Shown here in pieces: positions 127 to 56,705 of a stretch of DNA of 56,967 nt; within the stretch, counting starts at the first letter, position 1, and each line of letters starts with the position of its first letter. The position numbers and the translations under genes are program-made. The stretch comes from a virus (taxonomy: Duplodnaviria; Caudoviricetes). The notes below the pieces were generated by a model, which had not been told where the DNA came from, did no database searches, and saw only the letters and a program-made list of their open reading frames with translations. Location: the IMG/VR virus record IMGVR_UViG_3300042524_000351, positions 1 through 56,967 of that record; one strand, given 5' to 3'.

Positions 127-185
127 TTAATAATCAAAGGAATACGGCGGACAAAACCGCCTCGGTTGACATGCCCTACAACGGC

Positions 186-1514
186 ATGAACGAGGCTGGC
201 GACAAAATGGCGACAAATCGGGGGAACGTCCCCCCCAAGGGGCGGAGCAAAAAAGCAGGCCCTTTTCTCAAGGTCAAAGCTGGCTCCGCTGTGGTGCCAA
301 TCTATCGCACGGAATCCAAAGGACGGGTTCGTTTCACCCTGAGCTTCTACCGGGACGGCCGCCGCATGCGGAAAATGTTCAACGATCTGGAGTCTGCCAA
401 AAAGGAGGCGTTGTTCGTGGCGCAGCGAATTCAATCCGGGATGCAGCATGTGACGGACCTCAAGCCGCATGAGCGCGACAGCTTCAAAGCAGCGGAGACC
501 CTGCTGGAAAAACTCGGGATTCCACTCTATGCCGCCGTGGAGGATTACGTCCGCGCCCGCACCCTGGCCGGAACTGAATCGCTTTCGGTGATGGCCACGG
601 AATACGGGAAGATGTTCGGCAACATCGTTCGCCGCGCCACAGTCCCGGAGGTGGTGGCCGAACTGCTCAAAATCCGCGAACAGGACGGGGCGAGCACCAA
701 GTATCTCGGCCAACTCCGCACCACTCTGAATCGCCTTGCGGCCAAGTTCCCCGGACCGATTCTCGAAGTCACTGGGCCGGACGTGGACGCCTGGTTGCGG
801 TCGTTGGATATTGTGGCGGTCACGCGCAATTCGATGCTGCGCTGCATCAAGGTGCTCTTCACCTTCGCCAAGGCCCAGAACTACCTGCCAGACGAGAAGA
901 ACACCGCCGTCGAGCAGATCCAGCAGGTGCGTGTGAAATCCGAAGATACGACGATCTTCTCACCCGAGGAGATGACGACGCTGCTGCACAATGCTTCGCC
1001 CGATCTGGTGCCCATCCTCGCCATCGGTGCCTTTGCCGGGATCCGCATGGCCGAACTTGAACGCCTCGACTGGAAAGCCGTGGATCTGGAGCGGAAGTTC
1101 ATCGAAGTGCGTGCCGGCCAGGCAAAGACTGCATCACGCCGTGTGATCCCGATCAGCGACAACCTCGCCGCCTGGCTGACACCACTGGAACGGAAAGGGA
1201 AGATCGTTCGGACGAAGGAATTGCAAACCCATGTGCCAGCGTTGGCCCGCGCCCTCAAGATGGAGTGGCCGCGCAACGTGCTCCGGGATTCATTCATCAG
1301 TTACCGCATTGCCATCGTCCAGAGTGCCGATCAGGTGGCGCTTGAGGCGGGCAACTCTGCGTCGATCATCTTCAAACACTACCGGGAGCTGACCACGCCC
1401 GAGGTCGCGGAGAAGTGGTTCGGCATTCTGCCCAAGGATGGACAGTGGGAAAACACCTTCCGCTTTGACCGCAAGAAGAGACGGGTGATCCTCAATGGAG
1501 TGGAGTGCGAGTGA
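186..1514 (+). CDS. int: Tyrosine recombinase / phage integrase
   Basis: GIRMAEL (catalytic R), LRDSF (HxxR variant), HYREL (catalytic Y); adjacent to att; start placed at ATG 186, 14 nt after TTGACA. Confidence 0.92.
   Translation: MNEAGDKMATNRGNVPPKGRSKKAGPFLKVKAGSAVVPIYRTESKGRVRFTLSFYRDGRRMRKMFNDLESAKKEALFVAQRIQSGMQHVTDLKPHERDSFKAAETLLEKLGIPLYAAVEDYVRARTLAGTESLSVMATEYGKMFGNIVRRATVPEVVAELLKIREQDGASTKYLGQLRTTLNRLAAKFPGPILEVTGPDVDAWLRSLDIVAVTRNSMLRCIKVLFTFAKAQNYLPDEKNTAVEQIQQVRVKSEDTTIFSPEEMTTLLHNASPDLVPILAIGAFAGIRMAELERLDWKAVDLERKFIEVRAGQAKTASRRVIPISDNLAAWLTPLERKGKIVRTKELQTHVPALARALKMEWPRNVLRDSFISYRIAIVQSADQVALEAGNSASIIFKHYRELTTPEVAEKWFGILPKDGQWENTFRFDRKKRRVILNGVECE
197..218 (+). repeat. 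Tandem TGGCGACAAA repeats, putative integrase arm-type sites
   Basis: TGGCGACAAAA-TGGCGACAAAT; a matching tandem pair lies at 56706-56726. Confidence 0.7.
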
Positions 1515-1516
1515 TA

Positions 1517-1692
1517 CTGTTCAATCCGCGCGCCAACGGTGCCTAACGGACGCGGAATGGTTTTGTGGGGGCTGGTCATATTGCCATCCCTTGTGCGGCC
1601 GGAACGTGCTCCTACGCGGCACCAAACGCATAATCCGGGGCAAGGAGCGCAGCCTCCTCACCCCGGATTTGTGACGAACGAAAAATGGTGCC
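1517..1692. repeat. Intergenic repeat element, copy A
   Basis: Shares GTTCAATCCG-N3-GCCAAYGG, CTAACGG and AAAAATGGTGC with 24836-25049 and 25965-26091, and CATATTGCCATCCCTTGTGCGG with the 24836 copy. Confidence 0.8.
1632..1669. terminator. Hairpin between convergent integrase and late operon
   Basis: AATCCGGGG...CCCCGGATT stem with inner AGGAG/CTCCT pairing. Confidence 0.55.
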
Positions 1693-1694
1693 AT

Positions 1695-1886
1695 TCAGGC
1701 CTTGAAACTCTGGTTCGACTGCCCGTCGTCCAGCAAGTCGCCAATGCGGTTCACCGCGTCCTTGAGGATCGAGGCAGCGGCGAACACGATCACGCCGACC
1801 TTCGGGTCCACGAATGGAATGACGTTGAGTGCGGAAACAAGTCCCGCGATTTTCCCGACAAAGCTGAGATATTTGAGTGCTTTCAT
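1695..1886 (-). CDS. Small membrane protein, holin-like
   Basis: 63 aa, two hydrophobic stretches, last gene of late operon, preceded by GTTGACA motif. Confidence 0.55.
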   Translation of the reverse strand: MKALKYLSFVGKIAGLVSALNVIPFVDPKVGVIVFAAASILKDAVNRIGDLLDDGQSNQSFKA

Positions 1887-2020
1887 GGCTCCTGGGGAGC
1901 GGTGTCAACGGGCGTGGGTGGATTGTGATTGGATTCGTTCCGCTGTAAGGGTAAGAGCTTGTCGGTGAAATCGGCCTGCGAAAGTGTCACTGGACGAAAT
2001 CTGCCTTTCCTATTCCACAA

Positions 2021-2722
2021 ATGTGTCGAAAATCAAAAAGTTGCTCAGATCTTGGGACAAACGTTTCCTTATGGGATAAGCGTTCACCACTTCCTCCGCC
2101 ATCGTGGTTCAAAGACCAGTTGCTGATATTTGTGGAGGCCGCAGAGCTCGCTGCTTACGGAGATCTGGTTGGCGCAGTAATGATGATCGGTAGGATGAGA
2201 AGCGATGAGATGCGACATTGGTTCGTCGAACATGGTCAGTCGTCCGGTGGGCATCGCAAGAAGCATTTTCAGATCGCAGTCCCAGTTGTATCGCCAGAAA
2301 ATTTTGATGTGATCCGTGAGCCGAAGAGATTCGAACACCAGGTTTTTATGCGGGATAACTACACCTGCCGCTATTGTGATTTACAATTACTGTCGAAGGA
2401 GGTGCTCGTGGCGTTCGAGCGTGTAGTAGGTACTGATGTTTTTACGACTACTGGCTCCAACGCACAGCAACATGGCGCAGTTCATGCCTTCAAGATAGTT
2501 GCCGATCATGTAGTCCCCTACAAGCTGGGAGGAAGAACCAACCTAGATAACCTTGTATCAGCATGCCCCGCGTGCAACTATGGAAAGCATAATTACACAG
2601 TTGAGCAGATGGATATTCAAGATCCGCGTAACCATCAGCCAGTGATATCAACTTGGGACGGGCTCTTGCATCTTGTTCCGCAACTAAAGATTCAGAAGAT
2701 GCGCCATGACGCACACTTATAG
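2021..2722 (+). CDS. HNH endonuclease domain protein (moron)
   Basis: RDNYTCRYC...DHVVPYKLGGRTNLDNLVSACPACNYGK; lower GC; opposite strand to late operon. Confidence 0.85.
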   Translation: MCRKSKSCSDLGTNVSLWDKRSPLPPPSWFKDQLLIFVEAAELAAYGDLVGAVMMIGRMRSDEMRHWFVEHGQSSGGHRKKHFQIAVPVVSPENFDVIREPKRFEHQVFMRDNYTCRYCDLQLLSKEVLVAFERVVGTDVFTTTGSNAQQHGAVHAFKIVADHVVPYKLGGRTNLDNLVSACPACNYGKHNYTVEQMDIQDPRNHQPVISTWDGLLHLVPQLKIQKMRHDAHL

Positions 2723-2757
2723 ACTTTGCTTTACGACAAAAACACCAGGCCACACCA

Positions 2758-3324
2758 ATGATTGACTGCTCTATTGAAACCAACCCTTGCCAATACAAAG
2801 GTGATTACAGCGTGTTTGATGCTATCGCTAAGAAGGAGCTTAGAGAGCTTCCTTTAGCCAACGAAATTCTCAATCACAGTAATTTTTGTTCGTCGATATA
2901 CTTGGATATGACCAACATAGATGTTTTAACGATTAGTGACTATCTCGGTTCACTAAAAAAATTGATGGGCGTGTATTTTCTTTGGGTGGACAGCGGTGAT
3001 TATTGCGAGGTGCACCGCATTCATAAGATGATCTGTGTTTATGTTGGCAAGGGTGGGGCCAAGCTGCGGGTCGAGCAACATATCAAAGATAAATGGCCAA
3101 AGGATGAGAGGTTTTTCGTTTCATTTTTTGAGTGTTCAAATCGTATTGCCAAATACACTGAACAACTATTTCTCGATACTTACCTGTTTTATCTGAACAG
3201 CAACGAAATGAGCGGGCAGGATTACTTATTTGGATTCTGGGATAGTCATAGATACGACAACGGCACAGAGGCGCAAAGACTCGGTGACATCCTTGTAGAG
3301 CGAATTTATCCAGAGACCCTGTGA
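2758..3324 (+). CDS. GIY-YIG-like nuclease domain protein (moron)
   Basis: GVYFLW...CVYVGKG..LRVEQH and downstream E; AT-rich, co-oriented with the HNH gene. Confidence 0.55.
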   Translation: MIDCSIETNPCQYKGDYSVFDAIAKKELRELPLANEILNHSNFCSSIYLDMTNIDVLTISDYLGSLKKLMGVYFLWVDSGDYCEVHRIHKMICVYVGKGGAKLRVEQHIKDKWPKDERFFVSFFECSNRIAKYTEQLFLDTYLFYLNSNEMSGQDYLFGFWDSHRYDNGTEAQRLGDILVERIYPETL

Positions 3325-3329
3325 ACATG

Positions 3330-3352
3330 GCCGCCAAAAAAGCGGCGTTTTT
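3330..3352 (+). terminator. Putative intrinsic terminator of the HNH/GIY-YIG pair
   Basis: GCCGC-CAAAAAA-GCGGC followed by GTTTTT. Confidence 0.45.
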
Positions 3353-3365
3353 CGCATCTCGACTT

Positions 3366-3554
3366 TCACCTTTTCCGCCACTTCCGCACCATCGCCACCA
3401 GCGACATGATGCCGACGGCCAAGCCCACGAGCAATGACGCCACACGCAGGTGCCATTCGATTTGCTCTTGGTATGATGTGATGACGCCCAACACCGGCGA
3501 GGCGATGCCGACGATAGCTTTGGAAACGTAGTCGAGGTCGATGGGTGAGCGCAT
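3366..3554 (-). CDS. Holin-like membrane protein
   Basis: 62 aa, hydrophobic segments and basic C-terminus RKWRKR; preceded by GTTGACA motif. Confidence 0.55.
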   Translation of the reverse strand: MRSPIDLDYVSKAIVGIASPVLGVITSYQEQIEWHLRVASLLVGLAVGIMSLVAMVRKWRKR

Positions 3555-3569
3555 TGGCTGGGATGGCTG

Positions 3570-4142
3570 TCAACGGCCGGGTTTGCCGTCGAGATCGGGC
3601 GGATGATCGTGGCGTAGGTATTTCTCCGCCCAAGCCGTGTAGCGGGCAGTGAGAGTGTTGTAGGTATCGGTGTCACCTGCCGCCTTCGCTGCCGCGATGT
3701 CTTTGAGCAGTTGCCTCATCCATTGGCCGTGCGGCTCACTCCAGATGAACTGTAGTTTGATTGTGAACGGATCGAAGCTCATCGGCGCAATGACCGGGAG
3801 TGGTTTCGACGATGGAATTGCTTCCATGTTATCCGGAGCATCGAATGGCGTGATGGTGTGTGCGCGGATTGGCTCAGGTTTGATTGGAGACGGAACCTGA
3901 TGTGCCGGCAACTGTCTCACGGTTGGCACCGCAGTCGGCTCCATGTTTGGCACTTCCGGAAGCCGATTTGTTGTATCCATGTCGAGTGCATGTGTTGCGC
4001 CTTCCGCGAAATGCGGTGCCTTGGCTTTGCGCTCCCTGATCGCGGCTACGACTAACCCGTCCAAACCCGGTGTGACCGGGAATGGCTTGGCGTGCGCCAA
4101 GGAAGCAAGGGACGCAGTGAGGATGAATAGACGAGCCTTCAT
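3570..4142 (-). CDS. Hypothetical exported protein, Pro-rich
   Basis: Start at ATG 4142 gives a Sec-type signal peptide MKARLFILTASLASLAHA. Confidence 0.6.
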   Translation of the reverse strand: MKARLFILTASLASLAHAKPFPVTPGLDGLVVAAIRERKAKAPHFAEGATHALDMDTTNRLPEVPNMEPTAVPTVRQLPAHQVPSPIKPEPIRAHTITPFDAPDNMEAIPSSKPLPVIAPMSFDPFTIKLQFIWSEPHGQWMRQLLKDIAAAKAAGDTDTYNTLTARYTAWAEKYLRHDHPPDLDGKPGR

Positions 4143-4165
4143 GATAGTGGTTGCTGCTTCAGCGG

Positions 4166-5215
4166 TCAGTCGTTCGCAATCGTTGCTTTCCGCCACTGCT
4201 CGTATGCGACCTCGCCTTTGATGAGCATCACGCTGCCGAGTCCCTGGGCATACGACACCGACTCGCCCCATGAGGTGAGGAAGGTGCCGTTGCGTTCCGC
4301 CGCTTCTTGAACGATTTCGGCGACGGCTTCTTGGGCGGACCAGTCGAGTTCGTTCGGAAGCTCAATAGGAAGTTCGAGGGCGGCGACGGTTTCGCGAAGT
4401 CCTGTGAATTTTGGAGCCTTCAATGCAGCGAGGATCGGAGCGAATGCGGCATCGAATTGCTCTCCCTCGGTAGGCAGTCCTTGAGCTTGCCGCTTTTCGA
4501 CGAGAAGCTGGGCGAGTTTGAGCATGATCTTGTTCCGACCAGCGGTGAAGGTGTCTGCCGAAATGTGCGCGGGTTGAGTGGCGAGATCGATCCACTCGGA
4601 CACTTTCATGGAAGAACGCCAAAAACCTGGACGGCGCAGTACATAGACGTTGCGGAACTCGTAGTAGCCTTCTCCGCGAATCGCGCCCGTAGGTAGCAAG
4701 GTAGCGATGTCGTCCATTCGGGCGGCGATGCCGGGGCGGTGCATTCCGGCATACCGGATCACCTCGATGTCCTGAGGCACTAGCTTGGGCTTGGCCGCGA
4801 TGTGGTCGAGCAACTCGGCGCGCTTCAGCGGGGTGATGGACTGAATGATGTCGCTCGCTTCAAACTTCCACACGGGACGCAGATCGAATGGTTTCTGCAT
4901 GTAGCGGTCAGCGAGGATGTCGTCGGGATCTGGTAGCGTGCTTGCCTCCCATGCCTCACGCCAGTCGGGGCCGATCAGCTTTGCGACGAGATCGACGGCA
5001 TCCGACTGCGCCTTGGTGACGGCAGAGACAAGTTTGGGATCGACGGTGCCCGGAGGATTAGTCGCGGCAGCAGCAGCTTGGGCCTGAGTGAGTGCAGCTT
5101 GCGCTGCGACAATCTTGGCGTCCCGAGCTTTCGCTCGGTCAAGGAGGGTTGGTTGAGCGGCAACAGCGTGTAGTGCGCCGATGATGGTGATTGCGATGGC
5201 AGTCAGTGGTTTCAT
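4166..5215 (-). CDS. Hypothetical exported protein
   Basis: 349 aa ORF with signal peptide MKPLTAIAITIIGALHAVAA. Confidence 0.7.
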   Translation of the reverse strand: MKPLTAIAITIIGALHAVAAQPTLLDRAKARDAKIVAAQAALTQAQAAAAATNPPGTVDPKLVSAVTKAQSDAVDLVAKLIGPDWREAWEASTLPDPDDILADRYMQKPFDLRPVWKFEASDIIQSITPLKRAELLDHIAAKPKLVPQDIEVIRYAGMHRPGIAARMDDIATLLPTGAIRGEGYYEFRNVYVLRRPGFWRSSMKVSEWIDLATQPAHISADTFTAGRNKIMLKLAQLLVEKRQAQGLPTEGEQFDAAFAPILAALKAPKFTGLRETVAALELPIELPNELDWSAQEAVAEIVQEAAERNGTFLTSWGESVSYAQGLGSVMLIKGEVAYEQWRKATIAND

Positions 5216-5230
5216 TGTGGTGGTTGTTGG

Positions 5231-6106
5231 TTATGGGGTGAGAGTGATCCGGCTCTTGCGCCACTCGACGGGGTGCATGGAGTTCCAGACATCCGAGTTA
5301 TTCGGGTGCTTCGGTTTTCCAGCGGGAGATTCGACCTGATAGATCCAGACGAGCTTGTCATGGTTCTGCTGCATCCACTCAATAGCTCCGAGGTTGTCCC
5401 GGCTTGGTTGGAACAGGACCGTGTATCCAGGCGTGCCTCCAGGTTGCAGTTGGGCGGTGAGTGACGAGTTCTCGTCCCACTTCACGCGCTTGAACTCGGT
5501 GTTGTCGCCGGGGTTGGCCGACTGGTTGGCGAAGTAAACCCAAGCGTCGGGATCGCCGGATCCAAGTCCCCATTCGGCATCAGCCGGTATACCAGTGGTG
5601 CAGAACCGATACACGAAGTATTCCTTCTTCACGCTGTATGCTATCCCGGTGTTTGAACTGAATACTGAGCAATCCCAAGGGTCGGCCACGTTCTCAAAGG
5701 ATGCCAGTCCGTCCTGACCGAATGTCCATCCCGAGCCGTTCCATTCTGCCAGAAAATCGGTGCCAAGCGCACGGTATTGCTTCCGCCCATTTACCTCCAC
5801 TCCGGTCGGAATGTAGTTGTGAGTGAACAGGTCGTTCTTCTTGAGTAGGAATCCCGGCTCGAAGTTCGTGAGGCTGGCCCGCACCTGAACTTCGACGTAG
5901 CCCTCGGGGATACGGATCTGAAAAACCGGGAAGCCGTCCTTGGTGGTGACGCTCGGTTGATTGATGTCGTCAGTCGGAGTGAGCACCTTTGATTCGCTGG
6001 TCAAATTGCCCAAGCGCGTGCCTGTCTCCGCAGGTGGAAACGCGAACACGGTCGCAACGGCGGCAATGGTCGCCAAGGACAGGAGTATGACAGATGGCTT
6101 CATCAA
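5231..6106 (-). CDS. Hypothetical exported or tail-associated protein
   Basis: 291 aa with signal peptide MMKPSVILLSLATIAAVATVFA; start overlaps the upstream stop. Confidence 0.65.
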   Translation of the reverse strand: MMKPSVILLSLATIAAVATVFAFPPAETGTRLGNLTSESKVLTPTDDINQPSVTTKDGFPVFQIRIPEGYVEVQVRASLTNFEPGFLLKKNDLFTHNYIPTGVEVNGRKQYRALGTDFLAEWNGSGWTFGQDGLASFENVADPWDCSVFSSNTGIAYSVKKEYFVYRFCTTGIPADAEWGLGSGDPDAWVYFANQSANPGDNTEFKRVKWDENSSLTAQLQPGGTPGYTVLFQPSRDNLGAIEWMQQNHDKLVWIYQVESPAGKPKHPNNSDVWNSMHPVEWRKSRITLTP

Positions 6107-6747
6107 ATGACGTTCTTGGATTTGAGTGTGGAAATGAGGGTTGCCAGCACATCCATGGTGTCGTCGATGGATGCGGAGTTTGGATTGAACGACTTGAGTT
6201 CGTTGCGCAGCGTGACGGTGTATCCCTCGTCGGATTTGAGAACGATGTTGCCGGGAGGTGGGTATGGCGGGTTCGCGCTCTGTGGCGTTCCCTCGTCTCC
6301 CCGGTTCACATCGTTCTCGACGATCACGAGGAAGGTGCGCGTGCTGGTCGAATCACTCGCTCCGTCGCGCCATGTCACTTCACCCATCAGGGTGATTTCC
6401 GAAAGTTCTGATCCGGTGGATGATCCGACACCCAGAGCGGAATCAAGCTCCAGCGTGTTGAAGCTTGGCGAGCATTGGTAAACCGGACTTTCCGCACCCG
6501 GGTCCGGCATGGTCCATTCGTCGGTGTGGACGAGATAGCCGACATCGTATCGTGCGCGTGGCTTCACCCCGAATTTGATTTCGAGGCTGACGGGATCGCC
6601 AATCGTCACGCTGGTTGATCCATTCCGCAGGAACGCGACTTCTAACCGAGCAGCATCACCCCGCTTGAATCGCAACGAAGTGACCGGATTACGGAAACCC
6701 GGACCTTCGATGAGTTGGAGCGATTCAAGATCGACGTAGAGCTTCAC
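6103..6747 (-). CDS. Putative distal tail / fibre-attachment protein
   Basis: 214 aa, predicted beta-rich N-terminus reminiscent of BppU-type domains, short helical C-terminus; position in tail region; GTG start. Confidence 0.5.
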   Translation of the reverse strand: MKLYVDLESLQLIEGPGFRNPVTSLRFKRGDAARLEVAFLRNGSTSVTIGDPVSLEIKFGVKPRARYDVGYLVHTDEWTMPDPGAESPVYQCSPSFNTLELDSALGVGSSTGSELSEITLMGEVTWRDGASDSTSTRTFLVIVENDVNRGDEGTPQSANPPYPPPGNIVLKSDEGYTVTLRNELKSFNPNSASIDDTMDVLATLISTLKSKNVI

Positions 6748-6771
6748 GCCAGTGCCCTGCTGTCAACCGAG

Positions 6772-8778
6772 TCATGTCTGCGCAGAGTAGGTGAGTCGTT
6801 GCCCCTCCACGAAGACGCTTGATCCGGCGGCGGGCGGCATGAGGTCAGTCCAATCGGTGACGTTTTGATTGCCCACGGCGGAAACCGGCAGAGGCACATA
6901 GATGGTTTCGAGAACCCGTCCGTCTGGATCGGGGGTGTCGAGCATGGGACCGGAGTGACCGTAGTCCTCGGAATCTCCCGAATTGGTTGCACGGCGCAGG
7001 GTCGGTGAAATCATTTCGGTGGGCCACGCACCAGGAAGCGATTGGTGTTCGTAGGGCACGTAGTCCGGATTTGTCCAATCCACCCCGCCAACTTGGAGGC
7101 TGTGCGCAATGACCTGTGGTGGTCTGAGTTCGCCCTCCACGTATTCTTCGGAATACTCATAGGTCGCGCTTCCCTGTGGGTAGGCCCCGCCACAGCCCGA
7201 GATTCCCGGTTCTCCTGCTTCTGGGGTAGTCCGGTGGCTGCTAAACGTGCGCTTCCGGTATCGGGTGGTTGATTCCCAATCGAACGAGGAAAATCCGAAT
7301 GCTGATCCGTTGCGTTCCTGAGTGGCCGCCAACAGGTGGATGCCGGGGACCGTCACCTTGTCACTGATCATCGTTGCGGGATCAGGCAGTATTTCATGCT
7401 CCGCCTCAGCGATCACTTTCCAGGGTTCCGGCTCGATGCCCGTCCATTGTTCCAGGCGGAAAATTCGCGCTTCCGTGAACTGTGCGTCCGAATCGAGTTC
7501 AAGCCGGAATTGAACCCGCAGCGATTCTGTGTCGGTTTCAAGAACGTGCTCCGTGTGCCAGTTCATGCTCCCTTCCCACGTCTCTTCGTCATACTGCCAC
7601 TCTCCAAGCTGGATGGTGATCCGGTATCGGCGACCTGTGCGGGAAATCAGGTTGAGTTGGCTGAGATACACGTATGAAGGGGAAGCAAACGTCTGAAAGC
7701 CGTAGAGATGACCAATCGGCCTCCATGGAGTGGCAGCAAAAACCGGATCAGGCGAAGAGTCGGGATTCCATTCAAACTCGCCGCCCCCGTATAGGGACCA
7801 ATGATTTGTGGTTTCGTCCTCAAGCTCTTCCTCAACAACCCCGTTCGGGTAGCTCACCTTGGTGTAGATGCCATAGTTGGCGAAGTTCAGCCCGGTATTC
7901 ACCGTGAATCCGCCGTAACCGTTGGGGACTTTTGTTGGCTCCCTGTAAATCGTGGGCCGGTTCATTCGCCGACGCAGGCAAAGCATCACAGTGTAATTGC
8001 CATTCCACAGATTGGCCAGCGATCCCACGGTGCCGCTCGACCACCCATCAAGAAACCATGTTCCCCGTGTCTTCGCCTGCCCGCCTGAAACCTTGTAATA
8101 CCTCGCCCCCGAGCTTTCGGCACGTGTGGCGCATGAGTTGAACCCAGCCTGAGCATCCACCACAGCCTCATTCGTTGCATTGCGGAAGGTAAACGACTTG
8201 CCCATCCATTCCGAGAGCCAGCCATCGATGACGCCCGATGTGACGGCGTTGGATAGTGTTTCAGTTCCCTCGCGGTGGAATCGCTCGCAACTGGTTGGCG
8301 AACGCTCCCAGTCATACGACATGGTGACTGTTGTAGCGGTAAGAGTTTTCGTGTTTTCCGGAAATCCGCCAATCCCGCTTCCTGATTGCTCTATGTCTTC
8401 CGCCCAAACTATGCTGACAGTGTTTGCCGTCTCATTGAAGGTCATCGTGCGGGTCCGAGTGACGGTCTTGCTGCCGGAATATGCGGTGCATGGGGAGTTT
8501 GGCGCAGGTTTCCAGAATCCATCCTCCGAGTAATCCCCGGTCCACGTCTGGAACATCTGATGGCCGCAGATGGCTTCGACCTCAGAACTGGCTGTGAGTT
8601 TTGTGCGGTGGTTCTGCGGGAAGAATCCGCCTCCTGAGAACACGCGAGTCAGCTTGGTGATCGTCCCGACCTCATCCCCAAAAAAGAACGGGGTCAGGGG
8701 GGCGCGGGTGCGGATGGATTTCCAGTCGCCTGCCTTTTGCACAGGCCATGGACGAAGGTCATCGTGATGGTAGGACAT
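6772..8778 (-). CDS. Putative tail tip / structural protein
   Basis: 668 aa, rich in Thr, Gly and aromatics; downstream of the tape measure cluster. Confidence 0.55.
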   Translation of the reverse strand: MSYHHDDLRPWPVQKAGDWKSIRTRAPLTPFFFGDEVGTITKLTRVFSGGGFFPQNHRTKLTASSEVEAICGHQMFQTWTGDYSEDGFWKPAPNSPCTAYSGSKTVTRTRTMTFNETANTVSIVWAEDIEQSGSGIGGFPENTKTLTATTVTMSYDWERSPTSCERFHREGTETLSNAVTSGVIDGWLSEWMGKSFTFRNATNEAVVDAQAGFNSCATRAESSGARYYKVSGGQAKTRGTWFLDGWSSGTVGSLANLWNGNYTVMLCLRRRMNRPTIYREPTKVPNGYGGFTVNTGLNFANYGIYTKVSYPNGVVEEELEDETTNHWSLYGGGEFEWNPDSSPDPVFAATPWRPIGHLYGFQTFASPSYVYLSQLNLISRTGRRYRITIQLGEWQYDEETWEGSMNWHTEHVLETDTESLRVQFRLELDSDAQFTEARIFRLEQWTGIEPEPWKVIAEAEHEILPDPATMISDKVTVPGIHLLAATQERNGSAFGFSSFDWESTTRYRKRTFSSHRTTPEAGEPGISGCGGAYPQGSATYEYSEEYVEGELRPPQVIAHSLQVGGVDWTNPDYVPYEHQSLPGAWPTEMISPTLRRATNSGDSEDYGHSGPMLDTPDPDGRVLETIYVPLPVSAVGNQNVTDWTDLMPPAAGSSVFVEGQRLTYSAQT

Positions 8779-8782
8779 GGCT

Positions 8783-9424
8783 TCAGTAGGTTTGGCGGTA
8801 GAAATAGAGCCCCTTGCCGTAGATCACTTCGCCGCCCCCGGTGCCGGGGCTGATTTCGGTTAGGTGCTCGCTCACCAGAATTGATCCGCCGCCGTTGTTG
8901 GTGATGTAGGTCGCTCCGTCTTGAAAGATCACGCTGCCAATCAAATACACCGCTTCACTCGGGCGCGGAGCACCCACGGGCCAATCCGCCGTCTGGTGGC
9001 TGTCGTAGTTGGGGCCGGTGACGATTTCCCAATTTTCGACCGAGAGCGTGCTGGTTGTCCGCAGCGTTGCTTTCGCAAAAAAGTAGGTCGTTTGGCTGAT
9101 GTCGAAATGGGAATCCCAGTTGTTGGCGAGATGATCGTTGAGCGTGCCCCACTCGATGTAGAATCGCTTGCTGCCTTCGGCTGGCGGCTGTGACGGGGCT
9201 GGGATGTAGCGTGGCCGAGACCCGACGATGGTGAGCGGCACGGGTTTGCCGCCGACCACCGGAGCACCCTTGGCGCGGTAGAAGAAGCCCCGCCTGTCGC
9301 GGTAAAGTTCCATGCCCTCGCAGCGTTGTGGTGTGCGGGCCTCGATGGCATCGATCATCATGTTCCAGTCCTTGGCGAGAACCGGCTCCTTCGGGTTTCG
9401 TTTCTTGGGAAGTCCTTCGATCAT
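8783..9424 (-). CDS. Putative minor tail protein
   Basis: 213 aa, translationally coupled within tail operon. Confidence 0.55.
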   Translation of the reverse strand: MIEGLPKKRNPKEPVLAKDWNMMIDAIEARTPQRCEGMELYRDRRGFFYRAKGAPVVGGKPVPLTIVGSRPRYIPAPSQPPAEGSKRFYIEWGTLNDHLANNWDSHFDISQTTYFFAKATLRTTSTLSVENWEIVTGPNYDSHQTADWPVGAPRPSEAVYLIGSVIFQDGATYITNNGGGSILVSEHLTEISPGTGGGEVIYGKGLYFYRQTY

Positions 9425-10170
9425 GGCGGTGACATCACTTCATCGGAATACACTTTCTCGTCCCACCCGCCCCGGTCGCTGGCCATCCACTCGATTTCTA
9501 TTCGGAATGCCTTCTTGGATTCCTGGGTTTGCGTGATTCCTGTGCATAGCCAGTTGCGGCCTTGGCCAAGCTCGGGCGGGTCACCATCGGGTGTGGAAAC
9601 ATTGCCGATGTCGTTGAGATCCGAGTTGTCGAGTTTGGTGTCCTGCACCCATGACTGACGCCACGTGATCTTCGGGGCGAGGTAAGAGGTTTGCCCACGG
9701 TCAAAGCGTTTGAGGATTTCCAATCCGATCTCAGAACTCACCAAGGACCGGTATGAATTGCCCTGAGCGTCCTCTTCCTTCCCTGAGCCGATGTTGCGCA
9801 ACGCCTCGCGCTCGGCATCGGGAAGGTGCTGGTAGCGATTGTGGGAAAGTAGAGGCTCTTCCGAAGTCGCAACGCCCAAGGAATAGACGGTCGTCCCCTT
9901 GTTCTTGTCGCGATTTGTCTCATCGGTCCCTGCGAAATTGCAGACCACCTCGGCGACATCGCCCTCCATGATGGTGACGGACACGCCGCTGAGCACCATG
10001 AAACTGAAATCCGGGTGTGGCGTGCCAATCGCAGGGATGTATCGGGCGAGTCCCTCGCGCTTGGCGACGTAGGTGAGCGTGCTGCTCCACTTGCCTTCGG
10101 CATCCACGCTGATTGTGGCCCCTGGCTGGAGCACCAATCCCGCTGGAATCCCGATGTGCTTGCTCTTCAC
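9421..10170 (-). CDS. Putative distal tail (Dit-position) protein
   Basis: 249 aa, immediately after tape measure. Confidence 0.55.
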   Translation of the reverse strand: MKSKHIGIPAGLVLQPGATISVDAEGKWSSTLTYVAKREGLARYIPAIGTPHPDFSFMVLSGVSVTIMEGDVAEVVCNFAGTDETNRDKNKGTTVYSLGVATSEEPLLSHNRYQHLPDAEREALRNIGSGKEEDAQGNSYRSLVSSEIGLEILKRFDRGQTSYLAPKITWRQSWVQDTKLDNSDLNDIGNVSTPDGDPPELGQGRNWLCTGITQTQESKKAFRIEIEWMASDRGGWDEKVYSDEVMSPP

Positions 10171-10185
10171 GCCACAGGGGGCGCG

Positions 10186-11934
10186 TCAACCGAATGCGGC
10201 TGCACCTGGGGCTGTCTTTGCACCCGCGATCTTCACAAGCAGTCGATTGGATTCAGATGTCAGTCGGTTGTTCTCCCGCTGTGCATCGAGCATTGATCCG
10301 CCCGAGTATCCGCCGCCGCCGATTTTTCCGAGCGAAGTGACAATCGGTTCAAAGCCCTTGGTTTGTCCGGTGCGGGCAGTGATTTCCGTGGTGGCCTTGG
10401 CCGTGTTGGCTGCCACCTGCTTGATGGTTTCCGGCTTGGGCATGGCATCACGGATCTTCTGAATGATTCCGGTCATGTTCCGCTGCAAGGCAGAGGTGTC
10501 GATAACCTCGCCCTTCGCTGCGGTGTCCTCGATGGCCTTCGCTGCTGCGGCTGCAAGACGATCCGCAAGTCCGGACGAACCCTCTGCCGTGAGTTTGTCG
10601 CCGAAATCCTCCATGCCATCGAGATCGAGACCGAAAAGCTTGCCGTCTTTCCTACTGTTATACAGGTCGCCGAAGTTGGTGTTCACGTCCTGAGCGCCGA
10701 ATCCAAGCAGTTTCTCCATGCCTGGAATCTTGAGGATCTGCTTTACCAGAAGTCCGCCGACCCACTCCATGCCTGCCGCAAGGAAATTGATGGCGGCCTC
10801 AAAGCCACGGAGGATTTGATTGTAGAACTTCACTGCCACTCCCAAGTAGAGCTTGCCGAGGTTGACCCACATGGTGCCGTCGGTGATCGCGTTCCAAAGG
10901 AATCCAACCGCAATACGAAATCCGTCGATCAGGCTGTTGACTCCTGTTAGGAAACCGAGCTTCAGCGTGGTGATGATCAGGCTGATCACCTGTCCGCTCT
11001 TGAATGCGGCAATGACAAACTGAATCGAGTCGCGCACTGCCTCGCCGACACGTTTAGCCAATGGAGCCAGCTTTTGCGACAGGGTGATCGCTTCGGTGAC
11101 CAGCGGACGAATCGCGTCATTGATGGGAGTGCCAAGTGTGAGCAGCACCTCGTTGAGGGTGTCCTTGAGTGTGGAGAATAGGCCCGAGGTTGTCTTGCTC
11201 TGGGCTTCCATCATGCCTGAAAACCTGCCGCCTTGGGAAGTGAGCGAAATGAATGCCTGTTCAATCGCCGGGAATCCGACCTTACCGGACTCCACGAGTT
11301 TCTTCACCTCTGAATCCGACACGCCGAACTGCTTGGCGAGTTCCTGGATGATCGGGATGCCTCGTCCCGTGAGCTGGTTGATGTCCTCGGCAAAGAGTCT
11401 CCCCTGGACACGAGCCTTGCCGTAGAGTTCCGCGATTTCATTGACCGGGGCCTGAATGCCGGCGGAAATGTCACCGATGCGACGCAGGGTTTCGGGCACG
11501 GTGTCGGCCGATTCGCCGAATGCGATCAACTTGCGTCCCGCGTCTGCCAACTCTGGAAATTCAAACGGTGTTTGCGCACCCAGCACACGCAGCTTGGCCA
11601 ATGTATCCTCGGCTTTGGCCGCATCACCGATGAGGGTGGTGAAGGCCACCTTGGTTTGCTCGAAGTCGGCGGCGGAATTGATCGCCTTCACTCCGATGCC
11701 GATAGCCGCAGCTCCACCCGCAAGTGCTCCGCCGATGCCCGCCTTGAGAGCGACACCGCTGAGTGCAAAGCCCTTCTGCAACGCGATTGCGCCACCTTTG
11801 CCAAGACCCGCCAGTCCGGCACCTGTGATCTTGCTCATTCGACGAGCTGATGCCGCCACCACATCACCAGCGCCCGCCATTGCCCGCCTCAATGCGGAAA
11901 TGTCGGCTCCAAGTGTGACGGTGATGGCGCTCAC
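10186..11934 (-). CDS. Tail tape measure protein
   Basis: Ala/Gly-rich; tape-measure domain motifs FEQTKVAFTTLIG, TPFEFPEL, EDINQLTGRGIPI. Confidence 0.92.
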   Translation of the reverse strand: MSAITVTLGADISALRRAMAGAGDVVAASARRMSKITGAGLAGLGKGGAIALQKGFALSGVALKAGIGGALAGGAAAIGIGVKAINSAADFEQTKVAFTTLIGDAAKAEDTLAKLRVLGAQTPFEFPELADAGRKLIAFGESADTVPETLRRIGDISAGIQAPVNEIAELYGKARVQGRLFAEDINQLTGRGIPIIQELAKQFGVSDSEVKKLVESGKVGFPAIEQAFISLTSQGGRFSGMMEAQSKTTSGLFSTLKDTLNEVLLTLGTPINDAIRPLVTEAITLSQKLAPLAKRVGEAVRDSIQFVIAAFKSGQVISLIITTLKLGFLTGVNSLIDGFRIAVGFLWNAITDGTMWVNLGKLYLGVAVKFYNQILRGFEAAINFLAAGMEWVGGLLVKQILKIPGMEKLLGFGAQDVNTNFGDLYNSRKDGKLFGLDLDGMEDFGDKLTAEGSSGLADRLAAAAAKAIEDTAAKGEVIDTSALQRNMTGIIQKIRDAMPKPETIKQVAANTAKATTEITARTGQTKGFEPIVTSLGKIGGGGYSGGSMLDAQRENNRLTSESNRLLVKIAGAKTAPGAAAFG

Positions 11935-11994
11935 GCGCTTGGGTTGGAGTCAACTACCCCATCGACTCAAAGTGTCCAGATAGGCGCCAAAGGA

Positions 11995-12363: not shown

Positions 12364-12395
12364 GGATTGAAAGATGACTTGTGGCCCAAGGACAG

Positions 12396-13030: not shown

Positions 13031-13034
13031 GGCT

Positions 13035-13436: not shown

Positions 13437-13461
13437 GGATGGATCTCAGGTTGGAAGGGGA

Positions 13462-13833: not shown

Positions 13834-13863
13834 TTGCTCCCGGTTGGGATGTCAACCGCCAGA

Positions 13864-14289: not shown

Positions 14290-14306
14290 CTGATCGTTGA
14301 ATGAAG

Positions 14307-15399: not shown

Positions 15400-15420
15400 G
15401 CCCTCGTCACGTTGTCAATG

Positions 15421-15457
15421 AAACGCCCCCTCCCGGTTTTCCAGGAGAGGGCGTTCG
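15421..15457 (-). terminator. Hairpin after major capsid gene
   Basis: AACGCCCTCTCC...GGAGGGGGCGTT stem on minus strand with a short T tract. Confidence 0.5.
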
Positions 15458-45883: not shown

Positions 45884-46991
45884 AAAGTTTTGAGATGATC
45901 TGAGAGGTATCCGCCCCACGCTTGAACTCGATTTTGTTCGGCGCGGTGAGGATGACTTTACGACGACGGGTGACGCCATCGATTGGCATTTTCAGGGTAA
46001 CTCTCCGTATGGATGCCTGACGGACTGTATCCAATCGCTGATCACGCCGCAGGATCTCAAGGATGTCTGCACCGGTTATGCGGTAGCGGGCCATCATCTC
46101 ATCGTGTGCCGGGGAGTAGTCCACCTCTGTGATGAGAGTGCGGTCCTCCAGTGCATCAGGTATATCCGCATCGTCGGCAAAAAGTTCCGACAACTGGAGA
46201 ATGGATGCCGCACCAGGCCATTCATAGGCACTCGGATCTGCAAGAAAGGACTCTGCAAATGCGCGCCGTATAGGATCAGTCAGGCGACCGTAACCGGAGC
46301 GAATGCCAAGCATGCCGGTGGCCGGTTCAAATAGGGCGGCATCGAACTGGAGATCCCTCGCCTCTTCCCTGGAAAGGCTAGGCGAGGTTTCCGTGCCGCT
46401 GAGGCGACGCTGGGCGCGAGGCGATTTCTCAAAATAGAAACCAATGGTGAACAGCTCGGTATTCTCGAAGCGACGCAGCAAGACCCGACGGCTGCCGAAT
46501 TTACTGCCGCAACTGGCGGCGATGAGGGTGCGAAACGTATTGGTGGCGGTATTCAAATCGCTGACCAGTGTGACGGGCCGGCAAGGTTTGAACATTTGCA
46601 GCGAATCGCATTTGCGCACCTCATCCAGGCTCAACGCCGTTTCAAAGAGGTCGCGCCGGTTGGAAAGAACGTGGAGAGCGAGGCACTCGGATGTCAGATT
46701 CAGGTTGTATGGAGTAGATAGACCTGCCGCCCTGAGAGCTGCGAGGATTTGGTCGTGACCTTCAGGAGAGGTCATTTCCCAAGCTTCCACCATGCCAGAC
46801 GTCAAGACGCGGTATTCCTCAGGAGGGCAGGTGCCCAGATGAGTTGCGAATGCGGCAGCGGACACGACTGGACGTGGTAAGGTCAACCCTGCGGCGGGTA
46901 TGGATTGGAGGTATTCTTCGAGGATTTCCTCGTGCCCCGCAAAGGTTTGGAGGAAAGCCTCGTGATCGAAGTGGTTCGAGTTACGGGACAT
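45834..46991 (-). CDS. Hypothetical protein
   Basis: Long ORF overlapping the next gene; no motif recognised. Confidence 0.6.
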   Translation of the reverse strand: MSRNSNHFDHEAFLQTFAGHEEILEEYLQSIPAAGLTLPRPVVSAAAFATHLGTCPPEEYRVLTSGMVEAWEMTSPEGHDQILAALRAAGLSTPYNLNLTSECLALHVLSNRRDLFETALSLDEVRKCDSLQMFKPCRPVTLVSDLNTATNTFRTLIAASCGSKFGSRRVLLRRFENTELFTIGFYFEKSPRAQRRLSGTETSPSLSREEARDLQFDAALFEPATGMLGIRSGYGRLTDPIRRAFAESFLADPSAYEWPGAASILQLSELFADDADIPDALEDRTLITEVDYSPAHDEMMARYRITGADILEILRRDQRLDTVRQASIRRVTLKMPIDGVTRRRKVILTAPNKIEFKRGADTSQIISKLYDANVLLLPEFDAVLG

Positions 46992-47167
46992 GGTTATTGG
47001 CTGGTTGTTGGTTCTTAGCAATACACCGCGCCGGAACTCTTCCCGGCAGTATACGTTGCACCGCGCGGAAGATTCTGCACGATTCTGCTTGCATGGTCAA
47101 ATTGTTTCTGCAATTTTCCTCCCGCAGTGCTCGTTATACTGTGATCAGCATTACCAAATCTCCCACC

Positions 47168-55192: not shown

Positions 55193-55278
55193 TCATCAGT
55201 CATGCTTTGGAGCATGCGCATATAGGCCACAGCAATTCTTAAGCTCAAGAACGAAACCTTGCACTAGCATTACGCACA

Positions 55279-55422
55279 TTACCCCACGGGCATACTCTCA
55301 ATCGTTGCCGCCACATCCGCCACCCGAAACCGAACGGCCTTGCCCATCTTGATGTAGGAGATCAGGCCGCCCACGCACCAGTTGTAGAGTTGGCGGCGGC
55401 AGATTTTGATGTGGCGGGCAAG
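55279..55422 (-). pseudogene. 5'-truncated copy of the excisionase-like gene
   Basis: Translates LARHIKICRRQLYNWCVGGLISYIKMGKAVRFRVADVAATIESMPVG*; in-frame TAG upstream and no ATG. Confidence 0.8.
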
Positions 55423-55442
55423 CCCTGGTTTGTTCAGGCTCT

Positions 55443-56375
55443 ATGCGGAACCGCTCGATCATGCAAAAAAAGAAGAAATCCTCAGCACCCGGCCCGCAAT
55501 TTGTGCGCTTTTTTTGGCCACTTATCCGCTCCCTTCAAAAGTTAGGAGGGTCTGGCAATGCAAGCGAAGTCATTCAAATGATCGTGCAGGATGAAATGAT
55601 TCCTGAGGACGTCCAGCAGGAGAAGCTCAAGAGCGGCGGCTTGAGGGTGAACAATCAGATCTATTTTTGCAGACAGTATTTGGTCTGGGCTGGTTACGTG
55701 ACGTCATCGTCGCGTGGGGTCTGGACGCTTACCGAGTCCGGACAATCCCTCAAGGGTATGAGCCAGGAAGATGCGCTCAAGGTATTCAAGGAGCAGTCTG
55801 TTCTCAACAGAACAAAGGCCAATAAGAAGAAAGCAATCGATGGGGCACAAGAATCAGATGATATAGATGGCGAGGACGAGAGCGGCATTCCTGGGGGCAC
55901 CGAAGCGTATGACTACAAGAAGCAAGCGTTAGCCCGAGTTTACGGCCTGAGCCCGAAAGGCTTCGAGCACTTCTGCAAGCGCCTACTTCGGGAATCCGGC
56001 TTCGAACGGGTCGAGGTTACTGGTGGCCCGAAAGACAAGGGAATTGATGGTGAGGGGCTACTGAAACTAAATTCCTTCATGAGTTTCAGGGTTGTTTTTC
56101 AGTGCAAACGCTATGCGGAAGCCGTAACATCCAGCCATATTTCGACATTTCGTGGCAGTATTCCATCCAGCGCCGACAAAGGCATTCTTATCACCACAGG
56201 ATATTTCACCTCTGACGCCATTAAGATGGCGCAGGAAAAGGGACTCAAACCAATTGAACTGATCAACGGAGACCAGCTCGTCCGGCTCATGGAAGAACTC
56301 CAGCTAGGACTCCGTCCTACATATTTGGTGGATGATGAGTTTTTCGATGATTTTGCGGTGAATGGGATGGCCTGA
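55443..56375 (+). CDS. mrr: Mrr family (type IV) restriction endonuclease
   Basis: Mrr N-terminal winged helix (RGVWTLT), FEHFC, DKGIDG, QCKRY, LINGDQL. Confidence 0.9.
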   Translation: MRNRSIMQKKKKSSAPGPQFVRFFWPLIRSLQKLGGSGNASEVIQMIVQDEMIPEDVQQEKLKSGGLRVNNQIYFCRQYLVWAGYVTSSSRGVWTLTESGQSLKGMSQEDALKVFKEQSVLNRTKANKKKAIDGAQESDDIDGEDESGIPGGTEAYDYKKQALARVYGLSPKGFEHFCKRLLRESGFERVEVTGGPKDKGIDGEGLLKLNSFMSFRVVFQCKRYAEAVTSSHISTFRGSIPSSADKGILITTGYFTSDAIKMAQEKGLKPIELINGDQLVRLMEELQLGLRPTYLVDDEFFDDFAVNGMA

Positions 56376-56377
56376 GA

Positions 56378-56578
56378 TCACCCCACCCTCATCCGCTCAA
56401 TCGCCGCGGCCACATCCGCCACACGGAAGCGGACGGCCTTGCCCATTTTGAAATAGGGGATCAGGCCGCCCACGCGCCAGTTGTAGAGTTGGCGGCGGCA
56501 GATTTTCAAATGGCGGGCGAGTTCCTGTTCGGTGATCAGGTCGAGTTCGGTGCGCAGCGAAGTAGATTGCGTGTCCAT
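56378..56578 (-). CDS. Excisionase-like HTH protein
   Basis: LITEQELARHLKICRRQLYNWR..GLIPYFKMGKAVRF, next to attR; ATG 14 nt after TTGACA. Confidence 0.8.
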   Translation of the reverse strand: MDTQSTSLRTELDLITEQELARHLKICRRQLYNWRVGGLIPYFKMGKAVRFRVADVAAAIERMRVG

Positions 56579-56705
56579 GCCCTGTGTTTCCATGTCAATG
56601 TGGGCGGGGCGACTAGACCGGAAAATCTAGTGGGGAAACATCGGTTTCGTGGCTGGAAAATGCCATTCCGACGTGTGCCTAAAAATGCCATAACCTATTG
56701 ATTCT

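Follow-up and report, generated by a model that had tools for sequence, protein, structure and literature searches.

A TTGAC box in register with start codons in a family of Verrucomicrobiota prophages: promoter-type element or RNA signal?

Introduction

What is the role of the hexamer TTGACA, the word of the -35 promoter element, when it stands so close to a start codon that there is no room for a -10 element? The question is raised by a stretch of viral DNA, the complete 56,967-bp virus record IMGVR_UViG_3300042524_000351 (hereafter the window), where about a quarter of the prophage's genes are preceded, 13 to 17 nucleotides before the start codon, by the motif RTTGAC (hereafter the box). 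The original prediction, drawn from the letters of the window, reported this motif before 18 starts. We find that the box is an expression signal specific to the phage family rather than one used throughout the host, and we weigh what kind of signal it may be.

The prophage belongs to a family of temperate siphoviruses of the Verrucomicrobiota, an assignment made because its relatives by large terminase subunit (TerL) sit in Verrucomicrobiota genomes. Those with 88-98% identity are found in metagenome-assembled genomes of Luteolibacter, Haloferula and Akkermansiaceae and in viral contigs from lakes, and farther relatives in Chthoniobacter (~75%), Prosthecobacter (~72%), Opitutales/Puniceicoccaceae (~63%) and Akkermansia (57-61%). 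The closest cultured phages are ~25% identical in TerL protein, and a megablast search with 15 kb of the window found no match among cultured phage records. Lakes, soils and guts (Akkermansia) harbor abundant Verrucomicrobiota, and the expression of phage genes in the phylum is almost unstudied. Literature searches, which yielded mostly search listings, turned up no description of the box or of promoter or start signals of Verrucomicrobia phages; nor was an experiment with any phage of the family found.

The box in the window

RTTGAC is present at the predicted spacer before all 18 of the starts originally listed, the purine being G in 15 cases and A in three (15399, 25038 and 56578). On both strands of the window the motif occurs 49 times, and 20 of these copies are followed, after a spacer of 13-17 nucleotides, by an ATG or GTG that opens a reading frame of at least 50 amino acids. 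The spacer is 13 nucleotides in eight cases, 14 in four, 15 in two, 16 in five and 17 in one. All 20 boxes, on either strand, have the orientation of the gene downstream. Two of the 20 are additions to the original list: TerL (start 21610, spacer 17) and GTG 46865 (spacer 15). The latter is probably internal to a gene and spurious as a start, because ATG 46991 has the CA-rich leader usual for this genome.

The number of copies is not itself unusual (49, against 63.6 +/- 7.6 in shuffled sequences), and the signal is therefore purely positional. Its position was assessed in two ways, with gene calls made by our own heuristics. First, in 56 genes chosen by codon score, with the first ATG or GTG taken as the start, TTGAC is the commonest 5-mer in the 40 nucleotides upstream, the enrichment that the original prediction had proposed to look for, and 16 of its 18 occurrences there lie at -23 to -19. 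Second, of the 79 TTGAC sites, 18 have the start of an open reading frame (ORF) of at least 100 amino acids 14-18 nucleotides after the 5-mer, over a background of ~0.5 per spacing; the same histograms for four control words have no peak.

The boxes are found in several kinds of surroundings (coordinates here span box, spacer and start codon). On the plus strand, the box GTTGACA with a spacer of 14 precedes ATG 186 of the integrase, identified by a Pfam match (165-188), where another in-frame ATG, at 171, shares bases with the box; a box with a spacer of 14 precedes ATG 22496 of a ParB-like gene (22475-22498), in a 65-bp divergent intergenic region; and ATTGACT with a spacer of 13 precedes ATG 25038 of an ATP-dependent DNA ligase (25018-25040). 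All other sites are on the minus strand. As originally described, some boxes are built into the gene upstream. At four sites the TGA of the box is the upstream stop codon: before ATG 3554 (spacer 13; 3552-3574; stop of the ORF 3570-4271), GTG 10170 (spacer 13; 10168-10190; stop of the tape-measure gene), ATG 14289 (spacer 15; 14287-14311; stop of 14307-15095) and ATG 34149 of an NAD-dependent epimerase (spacer 13; 34147-34169; stop of 34165-34518). At five more the box is within upstream coding sequence: before ATG 16850, a scaffold start nested in frame within the S49 protease gene (spacer 14; 16848-16871); before GTG 17669 of the protease itself, within the 3' end of the portal gene (spacer 13; 17667-17689); before ATG 19790 of an M15 peptidase, within the 3' end of TerL (spacer 16; 19788-19813); before ATG 21610 of TerL, within the 3' end of the small terminase subunit (TerS) gene (spacer 17; 21608-21634); and before GTG 35796 of an LmbU-family regulator (spacer 16; 35794-35819). 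This last site is doubtful in the window: its box coincides with conserved S-L-T codons of an upstream gene absent from the original prediction, and ATG 35766 is an alternative start. The orthologue in low-GC and Akkermansia relatives does carry the box.

The remaining sites precede ATG 1886 of a 63-residue membrane-like protein (spacer 16; 1884-1909), GTG 6747 (spacer 13; 6745-6767), GTG 11934 of the tape measure (spacer 13; 11932-11954), ATG 13833 of the gene originally labelled tail tube (spacer 16; 13831-13856), ATG 15399 of a head-tail attachment-like gene (ATTGACA, spacer 13; 15397-15419), ATG 22206 of TerS (spacer 16; 22204-22229), the doubtful GTG 46865 within the ORF 45834-47021 (spacer 15; 46863-46887) and ATG 56578 of an excisionase-like helix-turn-helix (HTH) gene (ATTGACA, spacer 14; 56576-56599), where the box again shares bases with a further in-frame ATG (56593). 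The box thus precedes both int and xis. It is absent before the cargo genes for restriction-modification, Mrr and HNH proteins, as had been noticed for the first and last of these. In 13 of the 20 sites the TGA of the box is in frame with the start; a stop codon in frame was considered as the purpose of the motif and rejected, since low-GC relatives favor the out-of-frame spacings 15 and 16 (28 of 35).

Conservation among relatives

The N-termini of the window's proteins were projected onto related genomes, and the distinct sequences found upstream of each were examined for the box; the relatives so compared are of one family and are not independent samples. By this measure the box is nearly fixed before TerS (76 of 77 distinct upstream sequences), ParB (87 of 93), the S49 protease (38 of 38), the nested scaffold (27 of 27), the gene starting at 15399 (13 of 14), the gene starting at 14289 (10 of 10), the tail tube (9 of 9) and the tape measure (4 of 4). 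TerL has it in 33 of 45 cases and the M15 peptidase in 13 of 35, the rest of the latter having a junction in which TAA and ATG are separated by three nucleotides. Other genes never have it: the major capsid gene (0 of 5), a gene encoding an XRE-type HTH protein (0 of 33) and the genes starting at 23964 (0 of 23), 24545 (0 of 20), 15095 (0 of 9), 13436 (0 of 8) and 13030 (0 of 7).

Within the conserved sites TTGAC is fixed, while variation is free in the flanks and in mid-spacer and extends to the length of the spacer (14-18). The nested scaffold start provides a comparison, as its box is also read as Val-Asp in the protease gene. The codons are GTT GAC in all 27 sequences, versus just 4 of 37 at a neutral Val-Asp site upstream of the portal ATG, and so the nucleotides of the box are themselves under selection. 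Similarly, in TerS the codon-wise pattern of variation, free of insertions and deletions, begins exactly at the boxed ATG, upstream of which the spacer varies from 14 to 18. Since conservation of the protein begins there, the starts have not been mis-called, and when TerS starts were located by protein motif alone, the box was found before 72 of 72.

TerS contains a second occurrence of the word in some relatives (e.g., L080 and L084), where Lys-Leu-Thr at about codons 33-37 is encoded by AAG TTG ACT, 16 nucleotides ahead of an in-frame ATG within the gene; at this point the window reads CTG ACT. The word is either a chance look-alike or the mark of an internal start.

Hosts and an unrelated phage family

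If the genes of the host carried the same motif genome-wide, then the box would be a signal of the host lineage, as the original prediction pointed out. This alternative was checked in samples of 400 kb from each of two host chromosomes, and neither has a peak at the spacing of the box. In a chromosome that carries a prophage 91% identical to the window, 15 of 434 TTGAC sites have the start of a long ORF at box spacing, which is background. Among 255 genes of the same host, TTGAC lies at -23 to -19 in just two, and 10 of its 14 upstream copies lie at -40 to -34. In the second host, a Puniceicoccaceae isolate, 18 of 541 sites are at box spacing, again background. Upstream copies in both hosts lie ~36 nucleotides before starts and have -10-like partners, so placed that they look like the -35 boxes of ordinary promoters of leaderless genes. 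The pattern is consistent with the 10% of transcription starts in Akkermansia that are reported to be leaderless, with normal -35 and -10 logos (PMC4782308).

The phages of the window's family behave differently from their hosts and from another family. At 153 loci, 432 of 2095 distinct TTGAC sites precede the first ORF start by 14-18 nucleotides, in contrast to just 18 of 1014 at 40 loci of an unrelated family like phage P8625. The sites of that family peak instead at 29-38 nucleotides (55 sites). P8625 itself has the box at -23 to -19 before none of its 52 annotated starts, and four of its starts have a canonical arrangement of TTGACA, N17, a second box, N6-7 and ATG.

Two prophages of the Puniceicoccaceae host (L034 and L035) stand apart from it in composition, with 43-44% GC, compared to 57% in the sampled chromosome. 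They also use strong Shine-Dalgarno sites, of which the host sample makes little use (13% vs 8% in a control window).

Sequence context of the box

The consensus of the box is gGTTGACa in the window's lineage and wwTTTGACA in low-GC and Akkermansia relatives, the bases just upstream differing by lineage (G or GG in this one, CG in the Chthoniobacter types, TT in the types of Akkermansia and low-GC relatives). TTGAC is invariant by the way the sites were selected, and A follows it in 48-91% of sites, depending on the lineage. What comes next is common to the lineages: A, a C-rich stretch, a G-rich stretch, a pyrimidine at -1 and the ATG or GTG. In the window, G makes up 44% of positions -7 to -2 at boxed starts, versus 15% at unboxed starts, and GTG is the start codon of 5 of 19 boxed genes, versus 0 of 33 unboxed. 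This enrichment of G, together with the bias towards GTG, resembles the context of a transcription start. No box has a -10 partner at 16-18 bp, in agreement with the view of the original prediction that it is not a standard promoter.

Unboxed genes begin in other ways, with overlaps of the ATGA type or with leaders that are CA-rich and poor in G. The C+A content of unboxed leaders (0.67 vs 0.55) is a compositional trait; a positioned CA-rich motif taken from the host was considered and rejected, as CCAAC, CAACC and ACCAA have no sharp positional peak in hosts or phages. Most genes of low-GC prophages overlap their neighbors and have a textbook Shine-Dalgarno site, and there a Shine-Dalgarno-like word (GGAG, GAGG or AGGA) is found at 0 of 31 boxed starts, compared to 39 of 100 other starts (Fisher 3e-6). 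Pairing of the box itself with ribosomal RNA (rRNA) was rejected: the 3' end of the host 16S rRNA is the usual anti-Shine-Dalgarno sequence, and the 16S rRNA as a whole has no perfect complement of the hexamer and a single wobble match to it, which is internal.

The RNA around boxed starts tends to be folded in some lineages. Between -14 and +27, boxed starts of low-GC relatives have more structure than other ORF starts (mean z of -1.53 vs -0.13). In minimum free energy folds the start codon is fully paired upstream in 10 of 35 boxed cases in low-GC relatives (6 of 58 controls) and in 15 of 45 of the Akkermansia type (26 of 173 controls). A universal hairpin was nonetheless rejected, as it fails in the high-GC lineages, where the start codon is fully paired in 7 of 66 cases, compared to 51 of 316 controls. 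Folding of the spacer alone gives structure at TerS and the gene starting at 15399, and at five of the ten starts so tested (protease, 14289, tape measure, M15 peptidase and scaffold) the result is about that of shuffled sequences (mean z from -0.32 to +0.29).

Genomic setting, word depletion and RNA coverage

In the 65-bp divergent region the box of ParB lies back to back with an ordinary promoter-like sequence, 2 bp away, that faces the XRE-type HTH gene (ATG 22430): TTGACA, ~19 bp, TAGTCT and a short leader (22443-22473, minus strand). The -35 element of this promoter uses the same hexamer as the box. In relatives that lack the HTH gene, TerS too has its box in this region, on the other side from ParB. 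The region holds another repeated sequence. The spacer of TerS contains the palindrome TCCGCA-N3-TGCGGA (22207-22223, minus strand), and a related CTGCGGA element, kept in relatives, lies upstream of the HTH gene (22431-22450, minus strand). Together they form a probable operator for the XRE-type regulator.

Boxes tend to stand where one stretch of genes ends and another begins. Behind the major capsid gene there is a strong terminator hairpin with a stem of ~15-16 bp (15422-15455, minus strand), whose U-rich tail continues straight into the box of 15399. The 116-nucleotide stretch that contains it has a minimum free energy of -48.2 kcal/mol (z of -3.1). In relatives the terminator has a conserved stem containing GGGAGGGGG, followed by a run of T. 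Boxed genes of low-GC relatives lie behind gaps of 4-105 nucleotides or more, in contrast to unboxed genes, which overlap their neighbors by 1-17. Termination-reinitiation as a general mechanism was rejected because the first genes of units carry the box.

Away from starts the word is avoided. In the coding sequence of the window TTGAC is about two-fold rarer than expected, whichever strand is read: on the sense strand there are 24 non-start copies (32 in all) versus 47 expected, and on the antisense strand 31 versus 60.4, making it the tenth most under-represented of 854 5-mers. The expectation comes from a second-order Markov model that is not codon-aware. Host chromosomes have little depletion by comparison (observed/expected ratios of 0.84-0.99).

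The RNA evidence consists of assembled metatranscriptome contigs from three runs of one study, covering 6-11% of sampled words, and stretches of the window that the contigs leave uncovered are not counted as evidence. Coverage is deepest over the scaffold and capsid genes (mean word depth of 7.4-36 in the two bins spanning 15505-16838) and drops to 0.6-2.0 upstream of the scaffold. Scaffold contigs have loose ends of 94 and 106 nucleotides past 16737, which would place their termini at ~16831-16843, just inside the start at 16850. Contigs over the gene starting at 6747 stop at 6725 and 6735, with no coverage over 6834-9501, and one contig of the M15 peptidase gene stops at 19777 (start 19790), so that the ends on these two genes lie 12-22 nucleotides inside the gene. 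These positions weakly suggest 5' boundaries of RNA at three boxed starts. Elsewhere, at 23029-23316, each of the three runs has a contig of ~250-280 nucleotides that covers the end of the ParB-like gene (3' side) and what lies just beyond. It could represent a stable RNA or mark where a unit begins.

A candidate reader

A gene absent from the original prediction (35753-36304, minus strand) separates PolA from the LmbU-family gene, and its start is overlapped by the stop of the PolA fusion (ATGA). It encodes a 183-residue HTH protein, a candidate reader of the box. The protein has 1027 homologues, and four of the five host genomes searched contain copies (Luteolibacter-type, Chthoniobacter, Puniceicoccaceae and Akkermansia prophages). 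In an AlphaFold model, with a mean predicted local distance difference test score of 70.4, a disordered acidic linker connects an N-terminal helical hairpin to a domain of four helices, after which comes a terminal helix rich in Arg. By exhaustive structural alignment (VIA), 17 of the 20 best rows for the C-terminal domain are sigma region 4 (Z of 5.3-6.3), among them region 4 of sigma-E bound to -35 DNA. As to sigma region 2, which binds the core enzyme and melts the -10 element, residues 1-48 have no family match and are modelled as the helical hairpin alone, this segment not having been folded or searched separately. Among the proteins scanned with Pfam, PHROGs and NCBIfam, no phage RNA polymerase or full sigma factor was found.

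Does the protein travel with the box? In the control family, two records with a weak homologue (E ~1e-8) have three box-type starts each, in contrast to the 0-1 box-type starts of records that have none (P8625 and two others). The protein was not matched in three fragmentary records of the window's own family. In one of the two Puniceicoccaceae prophages (record L203, the copy in prophage L034) the sigma-4-like gene appears split into two overlapping ORFs and may be a frameshifted copy.

Comparison with known systems

Four systems bear a likeness to the box. The original prediction compared it to the start-associated sequences (SAS) of cluster K mycobacteriophages. The comparison is apt as a concept; the word, its length and its distance are different. 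SAS (PMC3203893) has a 13-bp consensus with AGGAG, a Shine-Dalgarno core, 3-7 bp before the start; its function is given as unknown, and it is confined to non-structural genes and favors ATG. Each is a short asymmetric repeat found in a single orientation ahead of many starts, and both are conserved by gene family and essentially absent from the host. Unlike SAS, the box is a word of 6-7 bp, 13-17 bp from the start, with no complementarity to rRNA, found at structural, replication and integration genes and enriched at GTG starts.

The promoters of leaderless genes in the hosts, P8625 and Akkermansia share with the box the word TTGACA, a fixed distance to the start, the lack of a Shine-Dalgarno site and a position at the opening of a unit. 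In those promoters, however, the hexamer lies ~36 nucleotides upstream and is joined by a TAnnnT-like -10 element ending ~6-7 nucleotides before the ATG, whereas the box is 16 bp closer, has no -10 element and is followed by a GC-rich spacer.

In the late promoters of phage T4, a small sigma-like phage factor resembling region 2 recognizes a single A/T-rich box that occupies the -10 position. Like the box, they combine one short element, with no second one, and many copies in the late region, and they involve a small phage protein of sigma lineage, as the box may too. Unlike them, the box is a -35 word at about -20, and the candidate phage protein has a domain like region 4 only.

The stoperators of cluster A mycobacteriophages are likewise numerous, phage L5 having more than twenty orientation-dependent 13-mer sites (PMC9283540). 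Stoperators and boxes both are asymmetric sites that exceed 20 per genome, follow the direction of transcription and lie at promoters and gene junctions, and both kinds of phage have an HTH protein of ~183 residues. Stoperators lie in short intergenic spaces, in no fixed register with starts, and their ligand is the immunity repressor, a protein of two domains that blocks elongation and has its HTH at the N-terminus; the box differs in being shorter and in start register, and the sigma-region-4-like domain of its candidate binder is C-terminal. From SAS, the promoters of leaderless genes and stoperators, then, the box differs in at least one defining feature each.

Possible roles of the box

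The two readings offered in the original prediction, a single-box promoter and a translation signal in RNA, both remain the leading ones. Neither is demonstrated, and the evidence leans to a reading at the level of DNA. We put at roughly 40% the probability that the box is a compact promoter-type element, acting as DNA and giving leaderless or near-leaderless transcripts. A promoter accounts best for five facts: the identity of the box with the -35 word, its positions at the opening of units, its depletion on two strands, the hints of RNA boundaries and the existence of a sigma-4-like protein.

How might such a promoter work? The box would be read as double-stranded DNA by an HTH of the sigma-region-4 type, belonging either to the primary sigma factor of the host or to the phage protein encoded at 35753-36304. 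A unit of expression would open there, with a transcript that begins at the start codon or a few bases before it, and the downstream genes of the unit would be served by overlaps, by CA-rich leaders or, in low-GC relatives, by Shine-Dalgarno sites. The DNA-level reading, the identity of the reader and the positions of transcript starts are inferred. The more particular proposal, that a phage protein with nothing of sigma but region 4 directs the host RNA polymerase to a one-box promoter in GC-rich DNA, with the -35 word about 14-18 bp from the start codon and no -10 element, so making leaderless mRNAs from roughly a third of the phage's genes, we consider unlikely. If true, it would be an architecture undescribed for any bacterial or phage system, and one that extends to the nested scaffold gene.

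A good deal weighs against a promoter. The geometry fits no known holoenzyme, as the box ends 13-17 bp before the start and leaves no room for a -10 element. Promoter-like pairs in positions 1-20000 of the window and in prophage L034 include none of the box sites, and aligned logos have neither A at -11 nor T at -7 in any lineage. The DNA to be melted, with no -10 element to assist, is GC-rich, which would be unprecedented: the GC content of positions -12 to -1 before boxed starts of the window is 68%, versus 53% at unboxed starts and 57% genome-wide, and some protease spacers are entirely G+C. It would be odd, too, for a single class of promoter to serve int, xis, early genes and late genes. 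The extra structure at boxed starts could equally be a feature of RNA. The boundary hints are weak because contigs cannot prove ends, and one low-depth contig spans the box of TerS and runs at least 32 nucleotides further, so that some RNA contains the box. Regarding the candidate reader, the structural match to sigma region 4 is modest, and Foldseek found no match to the model at an E of 0.001 or better. Its sequence matches are weak and generic for HTH domains: Pfam Sigma70_r4 matches 10 of 14 family members at E of 0.008-0.03, and a MarR-type HTH scores equally (MarR_2, 13 of 14). Finally, the association of protein and box rests on a tiny sample of independent records, the two control records with the homologue (L239 and L240) being near-identical over the loci fetched.

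Several of these same facts are what one would expect if the box acted in RNA. UUGACA in the mRNA, 13-17 nucleotides before the start, might recruit or position the ribosome, directly or through a factor of phage or host, and so serve genes that have neither Shine-Dalgarno sites nor CA-rich unstructured leaders. We regard this as possible, though doubtful. A spacing to the start that is fixed within ~5 nucleotides is typical of ribosome-binding sites. The box is used by genes of all temporal classes, is found at a nested start (27 of 27) and within upstream coding sequence at tight or overlapping junctions (ATGA), excludes and is excluded by Shine-Dalgarno sites, and at the M15 peptidase gene has been exchanged in evolution for a close-coupling junction. 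The extra RNA structure at boxed starts, with one hairpin at an orthologous start that we read as compensatory between L035 and L038, and the RNA contig that holds the box of TerS also fit. But host 16S rRNA offers no complement of the box, and no other reader is plausible. A signal in RNA leaves unexplained the depletion of the antisense strand and the identity with the host -35 word. Initiation independent of a Shine-Dalgarno site normally calls for the opposite of a G-rich, structured spacer, and the form of the hairpin is not conserved, half of the tested spacers being little or no more structured than shuffles. The first genes of units, lacking a visible upstream promoter, would still need one.

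What remains of our expectation is divided among sites for a repressor, processing and mixed roles. Perhaps the sigma-region-4-like protein binds the ~20 oriented boxes, and also the canonical early -35 element, so as to silence or gate transcription in the manner of stoperators. The boxes would then have no direct part in the choice of starts, and this role may coexist with a promoter or an RNA signal. Such a function is suggested by the many asymmetric sites oriented with transcription, as in L5, by the canonical promoter of the XRE gene with the same hexamer as its -35 element, by the conserved HTH protein of the family and by the scarcity of the word, on either strand, outside starts. We think it improbable nonetheless. 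A roadblock need not hold a register of 1-2 nucleotides with the start while its distance to the upstream stop varies from 4 to more than 100, and silencing would not explain why boxed genes lack any other initiation signal, nor the G-rich proximal block and the bias for GTG.

Less probable still is the cutting of long transcripts at or near UUGACA to give stable downstream RNAs with short leaders. The abundance boundaries near three boxed starts would follow from it, and hairpins just downstream could protect the new 5' ends. We know of no nuclease with specificity for UUGACA, and processing would account neither for the antisense depletion nor for the -35 identity; moreover, the boxes at first genes have nothing upstream to be cut from. 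Lastly, that these are ordinary sigma-70 -35 boxes, as the match to the consensus might suggest, with transcripts beginning ~30 nucleotides downstream and true starts further 3', is excluded for practical purposes by the codon-wise conservation of TerS from the boxed ATG (72 of 72 by protein motif), the missing -10 partner, the lack of a regular in-frame start downstream and the different arrangement of ordinary promoters in the hosts and P8625.

Whatever its mechanism, the box is a strong, simple and testable signal common to hundreds of uncultured phage contigs. It improves the calling of start codons in these genomes, nested scaffold and GTG starts included. As a promoter, it would depart from the usual -35/-10 geometry and provide a new route to leaderless mRNAs; as a signal in RNA, it would be a new element for initiation independent of Shine-Dalgarno sites. 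Either way, it offers a handle on regulated expression in a phylum without genetic tools.

Other features of the window

The window begins with a tRNA-Leu gene (38-120), the only RNA gene found in it by Rfam and tRNA scans, followed by the tyrosine integrase. Between the two, at 146-161, is a GC hairpin with a T-rich tail on the minus strand only, and it is therefore terminator-like for leftward transcription. The minus strand encodes a lambda-like head and tail module, with a TerL of the gpA type, a lambda-family portal, the S49 protease, the tape measure, the M15 peptidase and the major head protein. The replication module has a PIF1-like helicase and a fusion of PrimPol, exonuclease and PolA, a single ORF of 1469 codons (36301-40710, minus strand) in which a PrimPol domain is joined to a 3'-5' exonuclease and a family A DNA polymerase. 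The cargo consists of a type I restriction-modification system and Mrr.

The portal gene is unusual at its beginning. In 37 relatives the sequence before its ATG 19176 (19177-19200, minus strand) is conserved like coding sequence, yet an in-frame TGA lies immediately upstream of the ATG or two codons upstream. The true start may be elsewhere, there may be a small upstream gene, or the site may undergo recoding.

The palindrome GTAC is scarce, with 12 copies in the whole window (72 +/- 7.5 expected), and 5-mers containing it are among the most depleted words of the coding sequence. Seven of the 12 copies lie within the lower-GC cargo region at 47.5-54.7 kb. The scarcity looks like the avoidance of a restriction site.

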